DNA of 38,068 nucleotides, taken from Escherichia coli. GTDB lineage: Bacteria; Pseudomonadota; Gammaproteobacteria; Enterobacterales; Enterobacteriaceae. Both the position numbers and the translations under genes were made by a program. The notes under the pieces were generated by a model. The model was not told the origin of the DNA, made no database searches, and worked only from the letters and a program-made list of their open reading frames with translations. Within the stretch, counting starts at the first letter, position 1; every line of letters starts with the position of its first letter. This document shows positions 29,257 to 38,068 of this stretch, piece by piece. The stretch is from assembly GCF_003334385.1 (NCBI RefSeq), contig NZ_QOWN01000042.1. One strand, written 5' to 3'.

Positions 29257-29284
29257 ATGCTCTGGATAAGGATTATCCAATTCT

Positions 29285-29316
29285 AAAAAAAAAAGCCCGG
29301 ACGACTGTTCGGGCTT
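29285..29316. terminator. Bidirectional intrinsic terminator shared by ydbK (+) and micC (−): A-run, agcccgg/ccgggct hairpin, T-run
   Basis: Hairpin with flanking A10 and T5 runs read directly. Confidence 0.75.
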
Positions 29317-29396
29317 GTCTTTTTATATGTTGGAAAATCAGTGGCAATGCAATGGCCCAACAGAAAATAAAATCTGTGACAATAAAGGCATATAAC
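29287..29396 (-). ncRNA. micC: MicC small regulatory RNA (Hfq-dependent repressor of ompC translation)
   Basis: Minus strand reads GTTATATGCCTTTATTGTCACAGATTTTATTTTCTGTTGGGCCATTGCATTGCCACTGATTTTCCAACATATAAAAAGACAAGCCCGAACAGTCGTCCGGGCTTTTTTTTT, matching the MicC sequence as I recall it; located between ydbK and ompN as described for micC. Confidence 0.85.
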
Positions 29397-29623
29397 CCGC
29401 GCAGAATAACGTATAGCAAATTAAAAGTATAATTTTTATTTTGTATGTATTATCTTCGATACATTCACCAGACTTATTATCATTTCAGAGGAATTATTTG
29501 ATTAAGGTTTTACTTAAGGCGTAACAAATGATATTTATCGGCTAACTGAACTTCTCCTTTAGGATGTTTTCACTCCCCGAAATGGGGATAAAAGGCAAAT
29601 AAAATAACTAAAGGATTTATTCA

Positions 29624-31339: not shown

Positions 31340-31364
31340 GCCCGCACATTGCTGCGGGCTTTTT
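31340..31364 (+). terminator. Rho-independent terminator after uspF (gcccgca / tgcgggc stem, T5)
   Basis: Hairpin plus T-run 8 bp after the stop. Confidence 0.7.
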
Positions 31365-31660
31365 GATTCATTTCGCAAATGTGCTGACATTTTCCCCTCT
31401 AATCCGTACCATACACGCCACAGTTTTTTATATCAGATTTCTTATGCTGGGCGTTCCGGCATGACGCATACTCTTCTGATGCCATATAACGAATTGAGTC
31501 GCTTTTAAATGTCGCAAAATCAAGAAATTAGTAAGAAAGAACAATACAACCTGAACAAGTAAGGGCAAAAATCACAACTCTCTGACTCATAAGTATTTTA
31601 CTTATTTTTCAATGTGTTAAATATCATCAGCGACAACAATAAGCTACGATAACCCACTCT

Positions 31661-31710
31661 TTTTTTGCCCCTTTTTTGCCCCTTTTGCAGCGCTTTGCCC
31701 CATTTTTGCC
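31661..31710. repeat. Degenerate ~11-bp tandem repeat (TTTTTTGCCCC ×2, then TTTTGCAGCGC, TTTGCCCCA, TTTTTGCC) in the uspF–sitA intergenic region
   Basis: Read directly. Confidence 0.6.
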
Positions 31711-31822
31711 ATCAACAATTTTCCTCATCAAGTCATTTCAAAGCCTAATAGGTACCCTACTTTTTTCCTCAGTACCACGTCGCCAGCAGGAAACAACCTA
31801 ATCCCGGTTCGGATCTAAAATT

Positions 31823-31841
31823 GCTAATGATAATCATTTTC
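31823..31841. promoter_or_regulatory. Fur box (gCTAATGATAATCATTtTC; 17/19 match to GATAATGATAATCATTATC) in the sitA promoter
   Basis: Match to the canonical Fur consensus ~80 bp upstream of sitA. Confidence 0.7.
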
Positions 31842-31863
31842 ATTTTGTGTTGCTTATGCTATA

Positions 31864-31885
31864 AAACATAGCCGTTGCTATGTTT
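31864..31885. promoter_or_regulatory. MntR operator: perfect palindrome AAACATAGC-cgtt-GCTATGTTT between the Fur box and the sitA start
   Basis: Matches the MntR box palindrome described for mntH/sitA promoters (from memory). Confidence 0.7.
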
Positions 31886-31917
31886 GTTCTAATTTTGCTC
31901 ACTATAGGTACTAAATT

Positions 31918-32832
31918 ATGTACTCAATAAAAAAAGTAACCATGCTCTTGGGGTGCCTCGCCCTCACCTGCTCGATCGCATTTCAGGCGAGTGCAACTGA
32001 AAAATTCAAGGTCATTACAACATTTACCATCATCGCAGATATGGCCAAAAACGTGGCTGGAGATGCTGCAGAAGTCTCATCCATAACCAAGCCCGGTGCA
32101 GAAATTCATGAGTATCAGCCTACCCCTGGCGATATTAAACGTGCGCAGGGGGCACAACTGATTCTCGCCAATGGTATGAATCTGGAATTGTGGTTCCAAC
32201 GCTTTTACCAGCATCTTAATGGGGTTCCAGAAGTAATTGTCTCTTCGGGTGTGACGCCAGTAGGGATCACTGAAGGCCCCTATGAGGGCAAACCTAACCC
32301 CCATGCCTGGATGTCGCCAGATAATGCTCTGATTTACGTCGATAATATTCGTGATGCGTTGATAAAATACGATCCGGCAAATGCACAAACCTACCAACGT
32401 AATGCCGATACTTATAAAGCCAAGATTACCCAAACCCTTGCCCCCCTGCGTAAGCAGATTGCTGAACTCCCTGAGAATCAGCGATGGATGGTCACCAGTG
32501 AAGGGGCTTTTTCTTATCTCGCACGCGATTTGGGGCTAAAAGAGCTTTATCTGTGGCCGATTAATGCCGATCAACAAGGCACGCCGCAGCAGGTACGTAA
32601 GGTTGTTGATATGGTGAAGAAAAATCATATCCCGGCAGTCTTTAGCGAGAGTACGATTTCCGATAAACCAGCGCGTCAGGTTGCGCGTGAAACCGGCGCG
32701 CACTACGGCGGTGTACTCTATGTCGATTCCCTGAGCACAGAAAACGGCCCGGTACCTACGTATATCGACCTTCTGAAGGTTACTACCAGTACGCTGGTAC
32801 AGGGAATTAAAGCCGGGAAAAGGGAGAAATAA
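31918..32832 (+). CDS. sitA: Periplasmic Mn2+/Fe2+-binding protein of an ABC importer (cluster A-I substrate-binding protein)
   Basis: 304-aa ORF with signal peptide; first of four translationally coupled genes in SBP–ATPase–permease–permease order. Confidence 0.85.
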
Positions 32833-33659
32833 TGATGCAATCTGCGGGCATTGTCGTTAATGATGTTACTGTCACCTGGCGTAACGGGCACACAGCACTG
32901 CGCGATGCATCCTTCACAGTACCAAGTGGATCTATTGCCGCTCTGGTTGGGGTAAACGGTTCCGGAAAATCGACGTTGTTTAAAGCGATTATGGGATTTG
33001 TGCGTCTGACCAGCGGAAAGATATCTGTTCTGGGTATTCCCACGCGACAGGCGCTACAGAAAAACCTGGTTGCCTACGTCCCTCAGTCAGAAGAGGTTGA
33101 CTGGTCATTTCCTGTACTAGTGGAAGATGTGGTGATGATGGGCCGCTATGGGCACATGGGTATGTTGCGTATAGCCAAAAAGAGGGATCGTCAGATTGTC
33201 ACCGATGCGCTGGAACGTGTCGATATGGTGGATTTTCGCCATCGACAAATCGGCGAGCTTTCCGGTGGACAAAAGAAACGCGTCTTTCTGGCGAGAGCGA
33301 TTGCACAGCAGGGTGATGTGATCCTGCTGGATGAACCTTTTACCGGCGTTGATGTGAAAACCGAAGCGAAAATCATCAGCCTGTTGAGGGAGTTACGCGC
33401 GGAAGGCAAGACGATGCTTGTCTCAACGCACAATCTCGGCTCAGTCACGACATTTTGCGATTATACGGTCATGGTCAAAGGCACCGTCCTGGCAAGCGGG
33501 CCGACAGACACCACTTTTACAGCCGAGAACCTGGAGCTGGCTTTTAGCGGCGTACTGCGCCATGTCACACTTAACGGCTCGGAAGAAAGCATTATTACTG
33601 ACGATGAACACCCTTTTGTGGCACATCGACCGTCAGCGGTGCAGAGGGAAGCAAGATGA
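32832..33659 (+). CDS. sitB: ABC transporter ATP-binding protein (Walker [10 protein letters not shown], signature LSGGQKKR, Walker B ILLDEP)
   Basis: 275-aa ORF; motifs read directly. Confidence 0.85.
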
Positions 33660-34513
33660 ACGTGCTACTGGAACCCTTCAGCTATGAATATATGCTCAAT
33701 GCGATGTGGGTCTCGGCGATGGTCGGCGGTCTCTGCGCTTTCCTGTCATGCTATCTGATGCTAAAAGGCTGGTCGCTGATTGGCGATGCGCTGTCGCACT
33801 CTATTGTCCCGGGTGTTGCGGGGGCATATATGCTGGGGCTTCCGTTTTCTCTGGGAGCCTTCTTTTCCGGCGGACTGGCAGCGGGCAGCATGCTGTTTCT
33901 TAACCAACGCACTCGCTTAAAAGAAGATGCCATCATCGGCCTGATCTTCTCCTCCTTTTTTGGCCTGGGGCTGTTTATGGTGTCATTGAACCCGACATCC
34001 GTGAACATTCAGACCATCGTCCTGGGCAATATTCTGGCAATCGATCCGGCGGATATCCTGCAACTCACTATCATTGGCATTCTCTCGATCATCGTGCTTT
34101 TTTTCAAATGGAAAGATCTTATGGTGACCTTTTTCGACGAGAATCACGCCCGTGCTATTGGATTGCATCCGGGCAGATTAAAAATCCTCTTCTTCACCCT
34201 GCTGTCAGTTTCGACCGTTGCGGCGCTGCAAACGGTTGGTGCCTTTCTGGTGATCTGTCTGGTGGTGACTCCCGGTGCAACAGCATGGTTGTTAACCGAT
34301 CGTTTTCCCCGCCTGCTCATAATTGCTGTAACTATTGGCAGTGTAACCAGTTTCCTCGGCGCGTGGGTCAGTTACTTTCTGGACGGCGCGACAGGTGGAA
34401 TCATCGTGGTGGCGCAGACACTGCTGTTTCTTTTAGCATTTGTATTTGCGCCCACCCATGGGCTTTTGGCAAATCGTCGGCGTGCGCATAAAGCGCTGGA
34501 GGATCGCTCATGA
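33656..34513 (+). CDS. sitC: ABC transporter permease (Mn/Fe importer)
   Basis: 285-aa hydrophobic multi-helix ORF; ATGA overlap with sitB. Confidence 0.85.
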
Positions 34514-35367
34514 TGGCATTATTACTGGAGCCACTGCAGTTCACCTTTATGAGTCACGCACTGCTGATTTCACTGGTAGTTTCCATACCCTGTGCGCTGC
34601 TGTCGGTCTTTCTGGTCCTGAAAGGTTGGGCACTGATGGGTGACGCGATGAGTCATGCGGTTTTTCCTGGTATTGTGCTTGCCTGGATTCTGAGGTTACC
34701 TCTGGCTACAGGGGCATTCGTCGCCGGAGTATTCTGCGCGGTGGCGACGGGATACCTGAAAGACAACAGCCGAATCAAGCAAGATACAGTGATGGGGATT
34801 GTTTTTTCTGGCATGTTTGCCGCAGGTCTGATCTTGTATATTGCAGTCAAACCAGACGTACATCTTGACCATATTCTTTTCGGCGACATGCTCGGGGTAA
34901 CCATCGGCGATATAATCCAGACGGTGATTATTGCCGGGCTGGTTACACTTGTTATTAGCGTAAAATGGCGGGATTTTTTGCTGTTCAGCTTTGATTATCA
35001 ACAGGCGCAGGTAAGCGGTTTGCATACGAGATGTCTGCATTATGGGCTGCTGTGCATGGTCTCTCTGACCATTGTGGCGACGCTGAAAGCGGTAGGTATC
35101 ATTCTCTCCATTTCTCTGCTCATTGCGCCTGGCGCCATTGCGGTACTCCTGACACAACGCTTTCATATTGCGCTCCTACTGGCGATTGGCATATCGGTAA
35201 TAGTGTCAATGACTGGTGTCTGGTTGTCCTTTTTTATCGACAGTGCACCAGCTCCGACGATTGTCGTCTTATTCGCGGTTGTGTTCATCATGACGTTCAC
35301 CGTTACCAGCATCAACGCACGCACAAAGGGAAACACCCATACACAGGATTTGTCATCACCCAATTAG
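34510..35367 (+). CDS. sitD: ABC transporter permease (Mn/Fe importer), paralogous to SitC
   Basis: 285-aa hydrophobic ORF; ATGA overlap with sitC. Confidence 0.85.
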   Translation: MMALLLEPLQFTFMSHALLISLVVSIPCALLSVFLVLKGWALMGDAMSHAVFPGIVLAWILRLPLATGAFVAGVFCAVATGYLKDNSRIKQDTVMGIVFSGMFAAGLILYIAVKPDVHLDHILFGDMLGVTIGDIIQTVIIAGLVTLVISVKWRDFLLFSFDYQQAQVSGLHTRCLHYGLLCMVSLTIVATLKAVGIILSISLLIAPGAIAVLLTQRFHIALLLAIGISVIVSMTGVWLSFFIDSAPAPTIVVLFAVVFIMTFTVTSINARTKGNTHTQDLSSPN

Positions 35368-35579: not shown

Positions 35580-36164
35580 TTACTCCCTGACAGGGTTCGT
35601 AGGCCACTCAATATCAGGTGCAGTTGATGTATCAACACGGTTCAGCAACACCCGATACTTTTTCCAGGCTTCCAGCAACAAGGTTTCTTCCTCCGTTGCG
35701 ATTTCCAGATCTGCAGCATCCTGAAGCGGCGCAATATGCTCACTGGCTACCTGCATCAGGCTGTTTTTTGTTTCTTCCGCCTCCCGGATCCGGAACAGTT
35801 TTTCTGCTTCTGCATCTTTCACCCAGGCTGTGCCGTTCCACTTCTGAAACTCCCCTTCCGGGGATAACCAGGTAACATTTTCCGGTAACGGACCGAGTTC
35901 AGAAATAAATAACGCGTCGCCGGAAGCCACGTCATAGACGGTTTTTCCCCGATGATCTTCAACGAGATGCCACGATGCCTCATCACTGTTGAAAACAGCC
36001 ACGAAGCCTGCCGGAATATCTGGTGGTGCAATATCGGTACTGTTTGCTGGCAGACCTGTATGAGGCGGAATATATGCATCACCTTCACCAATAAATTCAT
36101 TAGTTCCGGCCAGCAGATTATAAATTTTTATGGTCCGTGCTTGTTCACTCATTCTGAATGCCAT
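35580..36164 (-). CDS. tfa: Phage tail fibre assembly (chaperone) protein, Tfa family (TfaR-like)
   Basis: 194-aa [27 protein letters not shown]..., closely resembling lambdoid Tfa proteins as I recall them; ATG overlaps the stf stop (TAATG). Confidence 0.8.
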
Positions 36165-38068
36165 TATGCGAGCCTCACAATATAGTTAAATGCGATGTTT
36201 TTGACGGTGTTTTCCGCGTTACCAGCAGCGTTAACGGTGATGGTGTGTCCATGTGAACCAATCGCAACAGAGTGCGTATGAGCACCAATACCGACAGTAT
36301 GCGCGTGTGCACCCGCAGATGCTGCTGTGCCGGACAGTGAGTGTGTATGGTTTCCTTCTGAAGATGATTTACCTACCCATTGGGAGGTGCCACTGGTTAA
36401 TGAGCCACTGATACCAACCTGATTAGTCCCGCTAACTTGAGTACTCCCTGCCGGAAACATTCCAGTAGGTTGACTCCCGCTATTCGTTCTGGGCCCAGTC
36501 TGACTATGTTGGTGGGCCCCAGCTGAACTTGTAGAGCCGCTCAGACTGTGCGTATGCGCCCCGGTGTTATTCGTGGATTTAGTGCCGTAATCAAACGACG
36601 ATGTGGTTTTCGTCCCCAAATCCGTACTGGATGCGCTGGCGCTGTGGGTATGCGATTTAATGCCGTCCTGTTCCTGAGACAATACGGCCCGACCACTGGC
36701 AGGTTTGCCCTTAATCGTCCAGCCACGCATATCAGGGATCACGCCTGACGGATAAGCCGCTGCAAGTTTCGGGTATGCAGATTTGTCAAAAGCCTGCCCC
36801 TGCATCAGGGCATAGCCAGACGGAACGGTATCTGATGGCCACGGGATTGGTGCGCCAGGCGGATAAAACTGCTCTGATGGCGTATAGAGTGAATAAACTG
36901 TACCGTCCGTTAACCCTTCCGGCTTATTAGCAGAATATGCTGGTGACGTATGAATCGTCACGCTGGCATTACTGGTATAATCCCATTGAATATTTACACC
37001 AGTCGCATAATTTCCGATTGCAACGTAAATATCGTAAGTATCACCAGATGTATTAACCCAGGCAAAATTTGTAAACCCTGTCAATGTGCGCTGCCATAAA
37101 GCACCAGTAATCCCCTTCGGATTACCATTACCTGCACGCAAAACAAGTTCAGATATACCTGCCTGTTGAGGTGACCCCACGTTAAATCCAGCGCCACCAA
37201 TCAACGTAATTGAAACAACAGAACTCGCCTGTGGCATGGTTACCGTTGCTAATTTGAACCAACCAGCACCACCGCTGAATGACATTGTTGTTGAGTTAAG
37301 CGTACCAATATCTTTCGGCGTCAGTGTTATATCAGCTGAAAGCGCCTTACCATTCACCTTACGGGCAGAAGGTACCCGACCATTCGCATTATCATTAGCT
37401 GCTTTCACTGCTTTCGGTGTCGCGGCAAGCGTTTCAGATGCGCTGTTGGTTGCACTACTGAGCTGGACAATTCCTTTTTGTGTTGTCGTAGCGTCCTGAG
37501 CAGTATATTTCCCGTTAGCAAGGTCATAGGCTGCCTTTACCGACTTTGGCGTTGCCGCCAGCATTTCAGATGTGCTGTTGGTCGCGTTGCTAAGCTGAAC
37601 TATCCCTTTCTGTGCTGTCGTTGCATCCTGTGCGGTGTATTTCCCGTTAGCCAGCTCATACGCGGCCTTAACGGCTTTTGGCGTTGCCGCCAGTGACTCG
37701 GAAGTGCTGTTAGTCGCACTGCTGAGCTGTACTATCCCCTTTTTCGTCGTGCTCGCATCCTCAAGCGCCACGGAGGATGCAATATCCTCTGCCCATTTTG
37801 CCGCTGTCTCAGCGCGCGTTGCTGCAGATTCCGCCGTACTTTTGCTCTGAGCTGCTGCCGTCGCACTGCCAGCAGCCTCTGTCGCCTTCGTGGATGCCGT
37901 CGTGGCGCTACCCTTCGCTGCTGACGCCTGTCTGGTCGCCTCATCTTTTGAAGCAGACGCAGATGATGCCGATGACGACGCCGAACTGGCTGACGATGCG
38001 GCAGCCGTTTTTGAGGATTCTGCGCTGGTTTCCGACGCTTTCGCGTTCGTTTCGGATGTCTTCGCTGC
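36164..38068 (-). CDS. stf: Phage side tail fibre protein (StfR-like), C-terminal ~635 codons; 5' end lies beyond the window
   Basis: Listed ORF 36164..37771 starts at a GTG; the frame stays open to the window edge (…[25 protein letters not shown]… Ala/Ser/Thr-rich repeats). C-terminal part is Gly/Ser/Thr-rich with multiple His-x-His motifs. Confidence 0.8.
37400..37771 (-). repeat. Three tandem ~123-bp (41-aa) repeats inside stf (…[44 protein letters not shown]…)
   Basis: Repeats visible in the translation and nucleotide sequence with period ~123 nt. Confidence 0.7.

Follow-up and report, generated by a model that had tools for sequence, protein, structure and literature searches.

Adjacent Fur and MntR sites in the probable control region of a chromosomal sitABCD operon of Escherichia coli

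Two operator-like sequences lie side by side just upstream of sitA in the window, the whole 38,068-nt stretch of Escherichia coli DNA analyzed here, and they raise the question of whether the importer encoded downstream is repressed both by iron, through Fur, and by manganese, through MntR, as a sequence-only reading of this DNA had predicted. SitABCD contributes to the fitness and virulence of extraintestinal E. coli, Shigella, and Salmonella, and its induction when iron and manganese run short together forms one element of how these bacteria respond to the nutritional immunity of the host. We therefore consider the identity of the operon and its surroundings, the two sites and their conservation, a candidate promoter, and the sit promoters of related lineages and genera.

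The sit operon and its place in the chromosome

The window belongs to an E. coli chromosome: several complete genomes match bases 1-25000 (the paa/tynA/feaB/ydbH region) at 100% identity, and bases 31500-32900 show 99.9% identity with many genomes, in which RefSeq annotates sitA and sitB at this place. Genes here run in the order ldhA-hslJ-ydbJ-nifJ-ompN-uspF-sitA-sitB-sitC-sitD, and tail-fibre genes of a prophage come next. The sit genes, with the ribosome-binding motif that precedes the first of them, are as follows:

31905..31909, plus strand: TAGGT, a weak motif of Shine-Dalgarno type 8 nt ahead of the sitA start codon, read from the sequence; a GGAG/AGG-type motif is kept here in orthologues
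31918..32832, plus strand: sitA, periplasmic Mn/Fe-binding protein of 304 aa (ORF; RefSeq annotation in 99.9%-identical genomes; homologues with Pfam PF01297)
32832..33659, plus strand: sitB, ABC ATPase (ORF; NCBIfam NF011630 at 591.7 bits against a cut-off of 393)
33656..34513, plus strand: sitC, permease (ORF; RefSeq names; orthologous sitC genes with Pfam PF00950 ABC-3)
34510..35367, plus strand: sitD, permease (ORF; RefSeq names in 99.9%-identical genomes)

The stop and start codons of neighboring sitABCD reading frames overlap, and the locus has the make-up of a SitABCD/YfeABCD-type importer, with a ZnuA-family binding protein, an ABC ATPase, and two ABC-3 permeases in one operon. SitB scores above the curated cut-off of the NCBIfam equivalog "manganese/iron ABC transporter ATP-binding protein" (NF011630), and the SitA, SitC, and SitD products match the expected metal-ABC families in an NCBIfam search. 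No SitA-specific NCBIfam model reached its cut-off for SitA, the best being an EfaA/SloC/MntC-type model below its cut-off; the identification of the operon rests on SitB, Pfam, and the RefSeq annotation.

Homology of the window to K-12 stops at 31711, and the sit operon with its promoter occupies the place that ynaM-ynaE-pinR take at the right end of Rac in K-12, next to ttcC and uspF. Downstream of the operon, two reading frames on the minus strand (35580-36164 and 36164-37771) are similar to the tail-fibre genes tfaR/stfR. The point at which the K-12 homology ends, the ynaM-ynaE-pinR position beside ttcC and uspF, and the tail-fibre genes together suggest that sitABCD is cargo of a Rac-like prophage, carried at its end. 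Just within the stretch in common with the end of K-12 Rac, at 31660-31711, a TTTTGCCCC-like motif is directly repeated several times (ctttttttgcccc ttttttgcccc ... ctttgcccc atttttgcc); as a guess, these repeats may serve the prophage integrase as arm-type sites in the attachment region. Elsewhere in the window, Rfam matches at gathering level were obtained for an IS009 RNA (35623-35821, minus strand), inside the tail-fibre-assembly remnant, and for the MicC sRNA (29279-29399, minus strand), upstream of ompN.

The Fur box and the MntR palindrome

The two sites upstream of sitA, given without a strand, are the following:

31823..31841: Fur box GCTAATGATAATCATTTTC, 17/19 to the consensus; the same 19-mer lies under a Fur ChIP-seq peak of strain CFT073
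31864..31885: probable MntR operator, a perfect palindrome AAACATAGC-cgtt-GCTATGTTT with zero mismatches and with arms as in the K-12 mntH promoter

The Fur box differs from the Fur consensus GATAATGATAATCATTATC at two positions and lies 76 nt upstream of sitA. The palindrome reads AAACATAGCCGTTGCTATGTTT (also written AAACATAGCcgttGCTATGTTT), and its two 9-nt arms, separated by a 4-nt spacer, are perfectly complementary to each other. Between the two sites are 22 nt (31842-31863), and another 32 nt separate the palindrome from the sitA ATG (31918), so that the arrangement put forward from sequence alone, a 17/19 Fur box located 22 bp from a perfect 9-4-9 palindrome that itself lies about 30 bp from the start codon, was recovered in each of its parts.

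Fur-consensus matches are common in A+T-rich DNA, and one reading of the region would be that both motifs are chance matches in an A+T-rich intergenic sequence. An example within the window is 836-854 (GATGATGATGATCATCATC), which has three mismatches to the Fur consensus on both strands and which we rejected as a site, since it is most likely a palindrome of GAT/ATC trinucleotide runs. The numbers expected from base composition are nevertheless only 4e-4 per window for Fur-consensus matches with two or fewer mismatches and 5e-7 per window for a perfect match to the MntR pattern. At three or fewer mismatches, shuffled sequences gave 0.02 expected Fur-pattern matches per window and 0.04 matches to the MntR pattern, and perfect 9-4-9 palindromes of any sequence number only two in the 38 kb. 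The motifs are also kept across lineages and genera, and a published ChIP-seq peak falls on the identical 19-mer; this conservation, together with the ChIP data, refutes the chance reading, to which we attach practically no probability.

For Fur occupancy, and for repression that depends on Fur or MntR, we draw on published work. The CFT073 Fur ChIP-seq peak at sitA (c1600, height 526) has exactly GCTAATGATAATCATTTTC as its listed motif (PMC7157518 supplement), and sitABCD is counted in the direct Fur regulon of that strain (PMC7157518 main text). In the CFT073 fur mutant, RNA was up 19.7-fold for sitB, 16-fold for sitC, and 8-fold for sitD, and SitB protein was up 109-fold (PMC7157518). CFT073 has the same Fur 19-mer as the window, and its sitBCD genes are derepressed without Fur; its sitA is annotated as a pseudogene, unlike the sitA reading frame found here (Banerjee et al. 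2020, PMC7157518). A ChIP-exo and RNA-seq study found sitABCD to be Fur regulated in two of three pathogenic E. coli strains, and in Salmonella, where loss of fur raised sitA 53.8-fold, this gene ranks with those under the strongest Fur repression (PMC3212961). Both regulators are near universal in the species, with fur (which lies outside the window itself) in 5425 and mntR in 5422 of 5426 complete E. coli genomes.

The arms of the palindrome are the same as those in the K-12 mntH promoter (AAACATAGC-aaag-GCTATGTTT), which we take to be the MntR operator described by Patzer and Hantke in 2001. Their study, "Dual repression by Fe2+-Fur and Mn2+-MntR of the mntH gene," is said to have established the mntH operator. 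The mntH promoter resembles that of the window beyond the identical arms, with a Fur-like box just upstream that overlaps a -35-like hexamer and with the same dual-repressor logic. The two nonetheless differ in the spacer of the palindrome (aaag at mntH versus cgtt), in the match of the Fur-like box (GAATTTGATAATCATTCTC, 15/19, versus 17/19), in the gap between the Fur and MntR sites (15 versus 22 nt), in the distance from the palindrome to the start codon (13 nt to the annotated mntH start versus 32 nt), and in the transporter encoded, MntH being an NRAMP protein and SitABCD an ABC importer.

To place the palindrome in a wider context, we scanned one genome per species from 100,044 species for perfect copies, which recovered 87 DNA stretches that were sorted by tblastn. 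The perfect palindrome lies 12 to 15 bp upstream of mntH in about 40 Enterobacteriaceae species and 64 to 73 bp upstream of a sitA homologue in three (Enterobacter sp. R1, Cedecea, and Dryocola); within Enterobacteriaceae other than E. coli, it adjoins only mntH or sitA. About 45 of the 87 loci, in Clostridia, cyanobacteria, and other unrelated taxa, have no sitA, mntH, mntS, or mntP nearby, and we treated these nonenterobacterial matches as chance occurrences or unrelated repeats. Six copies of AAACATAGC-N4-GCTATGTTT, with the spacer CGTA/TACG, were found in Bacterium isolate P11BWT0bin.6 and three copies in Saprospiraceae MAG-109; several are at contig ends and none is near a sit or mntH homologue, and these palindromes look like an unrelated repeat family.

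The sequence-only reading had also called the MntR site unusually perfect, a description that needs to be narrowed. Relative to other sites it stands: in K-12 the MntR-like pattern has four mismatches upstream of mntS and three in each of two boxes upstream of mntP, and most sitA orthologues carry an MntR-like box with three to six mismatches, poorer than the site in the window. It does not extend to mntH, where the same perfect site is found in K-12 and in the roughly 40 species above, and which is essentially the site from which the MntR consensus was drawn. Work by Waters from 2011 is reportedly the basis for regarding mntS and mntP as MntR targets.

Repression by both metals through neighboring Fur and MntR operators is established for sitABCD operons. 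Ikeda and coworkers are reported to have used, in 2005, reporter fusions in fur and mntR mutants together with binding-site mutations in Salmonella sit. As described in reviews, the Salmonella Typhimurium sitABCD promoter has a Fur site and an MntR site upstream of the same operon type, as in the window, and repression by manganese there is mainly via MntR and repression by iron mainly via Fur (Ikeda et al. 2005; Kehres et al. 2002); the genomic settings differ, with Salmonella sit in SPI-1 and the window copy beside uspF, where a Rac-like prophage ends. The Shigella flexneri operon is likewise repressed by Fe/Fur and Mn/MntR, as predicted for the window (Runyen-Janecky et al. 2006, via reviews). 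Reviews citing Ikeda 2005 and Runyen-Janecky 2006 state that Mn-MntR represses SitABCD in Salmonella and Shigella (PMC3852070, PMC9315381), and one that also cites Patzer and Hantke 2001 extends this to MntH and SitABCD in enterobacteria (PMC3852070). We found no paper in the open-access literature showing MntR control in an E. coli strain with exactly this promoter, and a full-text search for AAACATAGC returned unrelated papers only. The prediction of dual iron and manganese repression is supported by Fur ChIP-seq on the identical 19-mer in CFT073, by the mntH-identical arms, and by the reviews on Salmonella and Shigella. Because those reviews and the CFT073 data already cover MntR and Fur repression, the sites and their dual-repressor reading are already known and add no new biology; the main use of the finding is a correct annotation of the window.

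A perfect DNA palindrome also invites the reading that it acts as an RNA hairpin (a terminator, an attenuator, or a 5'-UTR structure) and not as protein-binding DNA. A scan for terminator-like elements does list 31864-31885, with a 9-bp stem and a 4-nt loop, and the RNA folds at -9.8 kcal/mol (z = -3.25 against shuffles), but folding is expected of any perfect DNA palindrome. An intrinsic terminator is poorly matched, with only three of nine stem pairs being G-C and with a tail, GTTCTAATTT, that has no U-run; moreover, uspF has its own G+C-rich terminator at 31340-31359, and the palindrome lies 530 nt further downstream, just before a start codon. Orthologues keep the arm core ATAGC-N4-GCTA and not the pairing, the outer positions losing complementarity (e.g., TAAGATAGC-acag-GCTAATTCT), and no compensatory change was seen in the palindrome arms among them. 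The identity of the arms to the mntH palindrome, the lack of any Rfam family match in the palindrome region, and the candidate transcription start inside the left arm (see below), which would leave the hairpin out of the mRNA, all speak against a function in RNA, and we regard it as extremely improbable.

Conservation within the species points to the same two sites. The sit control region, 81 nt long, is present in 2356 of 5426 complete E. coli genomes, at 1680 chromosomal and 1009 plasmid places. We aligned the promoters of six diverged E. coli sit lineages, namely, the window, the chromosomal copies of MSHS 472, 042, and SCPM-O-B-8794, the plasmid pAPEC-O2-ColV, and the common ColV-plasmid lineage (about 86% identical). 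Across the six, variation is seen at 3 of 19 positions in the Fur box and at 12 of the 33 that precede it, at 1 of 4 in the spacer of the palindrome, and at 5 of 32 in the 5' leader. Only 1 of 18 arm positions varies, compared with 8 of the 22 that lie directly upstream, between the two sites, and this argues for selection on the MntR arms. In strain 042, the Fur box and MntR arms are as in the window, and the differences lie in the spacer (ctgt) and in the inter-box and flanking sequence.

A narrower reading would keep only the Fur box as functional in this host, with the palindrome unused or bound by another regulator such as OxyR, whose motif also contains ATAG/CTAT. The direct in vivo evidence that we found for E. 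coli concerns Fur only, an OxyR element is also described in the Salmonella sit promoter (PMC9315381), and in Yersinia, yfeABCD is controlled through Fur alone (PMC3852070). Against this, mntR is present in nearly all E. coli genomes, the same perfect site stands at mntH in the same species, and the arms are nearly invariant across sit lineages while the sequence directly upstream is not. The Shigella sit operon, moreover, is presumably of this chromosomal type. Reviews describe MntR-dependent manganese repression of that operon (PMC3852070). The Yersinia case also differs in its regulators: the Yersinia pestis yfeABCD operon encodes a homologous Mn/Fe ABC importer that is likewise repressed by metal excess, but Yersinia is without MntR and Fur mediates both iron and manganese repression (PMC3852070), whereas the window has a dedicated MntR operator. 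We consider control through the Fur box alone very unlikely, and a palindrome that serves as an MntR operator remains the preferred reading.

Natural variants of the two sites were also seen. In isolate AF4 (NZ_OZ547143), an IS5 insertion immediately precedes the MntR box, at the equivalent of window position ~31854; it replaces the Fur box and the candidate -35 and leaves the palindrome and sitA intact, so that sit should no longer respond to Fur in this isolate. Among plasmid copies of sit, the most frequent promoter (ColV-type plasmid NZ_CP025329, about 1590-1680) occurs in some 1000 plasmids, those of Klebsiella and Salmonella among them; it carries ATTATTTAC in its Fur box and AAACATAGT in the main MntR box, on the left arm.

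A candidate promoter and a model of repression

A strict consensus promoter scan of 31700-31917 called no promoter. A relaxed search for -35/-10 pairs, compared across 13 sit promoters, gave the following best pair of the region:

31837..31842, plus strand: candidate -35 TTTTCA, overlapping the 3' end of the Fur box
31860..31865, plus strand: candidate -10 TATAAA, at the junction of box 1 (the upstream MntR-like box described below) and box 2, with a 17-nt spacer from TTTTCA

The consensus scanner missed the candidate -10 because it has a base other than T at position 6. All 13 sit promoters have an equivalent pair at the corresponding place in the alignment, with a spacer of 17 to 18 nt; the aligned -35 variants are TTTTCA, TTTACA, GTTACA, TTGTCA, and TTTGCA, and those of the -10 are TATAAA, TATATA, TATAAG, and TATGTT. 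The Fur box overlaps the best -35 candidate, which is itself kept in position. We infer that TTTTCA-17-TATAAA is likely a sigma-70 promoter with a start site near 31872; the mntH promoter can be read by the same hexamer logic.

With the promoter at this position, the Fur box would cover five of the six bases of the -35 hexamer, and the MntR palindrome would span the end of the -10 to about +14. In this putative exclusion geometry, either metal-loaded repressor alone could block RNA polymerase, and sitABCD would be fully expressed only when iron and manganese are both scarce. Taken together, the motifs, their identity to characterized sites, their conservation, and the occurrence of both regulator genes in the species make it very probable that 31823-31885 is the control region of the sitABCD Mn2+/Fe2+ importer, combining one Fe2+-Fur operator and one high-affinity Mn2+-MntR operator, with a candidate promoter that the repressors would occlude.

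Tandem MntR boxes in related sit promoters

What is mildly new in this region is only comparative, in that tandem operators may have decayed differently in chromosomal and plasmid sit lineages, which could matter for the manganese response. We traced SitA orthologues of 79 to 87% identity to contigs of Yokenella, [Enterobacter] lignolyticus, Lelliottia, Pantoea, and Izhakiella and to one further contig; the best 120 SitA homologues listed are all at least 79% identical, with none from Salmonella. A second group, of 74 to 76% SitA identity, comprises Enterobacter sp., Cedecea, and Dryocola. The layout of Fur box, MntR box or boxes, about 35 nt, and ATG recurs in nine sit promoters of other genera, and a Fur-like box is recognizable in eight of these, with a core AATGATAAT(C/T)ATTT, in the longer form AATGATAAT(T/C)ATTTTCA, that is common to the orthologues of other genera. 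The Pantoea agglomerans sitA promoter has both MntR-like boxes and no recognizable Fur box (the best match has seven mismatches), which suggests that in this genus sit is under MntR-only control.

Most sitA orthologues have two tandem MntR-like boxes whose starts are 19 bp apart, as in Lelliottia, where AAATATAGC-ctgt-GCTATATAA overlaps TAAGATAGC-acag-GCTAATTCT. The perfect palindrome of the window corresponds to the downstream box of such a pair, and a putative vestige of the upstream box can be recognized:

31845..31866, no strand given: degenerate upstream MntR-like box ("box 1"), TTGTGTTGC-TTAT-GCTATAAAA, starting 19 bp upstream of the perfect box

The core of box 1 is GTTGC-N4-GCTAT in the window, and other E. 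coli lineages have retained more of it: in pAPEC-O2-ColV it is ATAGG-N4-GCTAT, and in the common ColV-plasmid lineage it is perfect (TATAGC-ttct-GCTATA), with one mismatch in the downstream box (AAACATAGT). The reverse of the E. coli arrangement is seen in Enterobacter sp. R1, Cedecea, and Dryocola, with a perfect upstream box and an imperfect downstream one. At least nine other enterobacterial genera have the tandem pair in their sitA promoters, and E. coli mntS has a similar one. These comparisons raise the possibility, which we hold only tentatively and consider rather less than even, that the perfect palindrome is the surviving half of an ancestral tandem MntR pair whose upstream box decayed in the chromosomal lineage as its downstream box came to match the mntH operator of the host, with the opposite trend in the ColV lineage. 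Any role of box 1 in the window would be conjectural. Should binding involve two cooperating MntR dimers in some lineages and a single dimer in others, chromosomal and plasmid copies of sit could have different manganese thresholds.

Box 1 also contains a position at which the window differs from its nearest relatives. The full-length 81-mer at 31815-31895 is identical in no complete E. coli genome of the collection searched, and position 31849, the first core position of box 1 and within the putative promoter spacer, is G in the window and A in the nearest genomes. This G could be a private allele or a sequencing error; if the tandem scenario is true, a private A-to-G change would weaken the upstream box further.

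The K-12 mntS-mntR intergenic region has two overlapping MntR-like boxes, AGATATAGC-acag-GCTATATTA followed by TTATATAGC-tatt-GCTAAAACG, in the same tandem layout as in the sitA promoters of other genera. A published proposal derives mntS from a sitA gene, namely, from its 5' end (bioRxiv 10.1101/2023.06.02.543501), and the tandem boxes at mntS fit this proposal because they share the layout of those sitA promoters. The fit is not a simple one, however, in that the degenerate outer arm of the mntS boxes faces mntR and not mntS.
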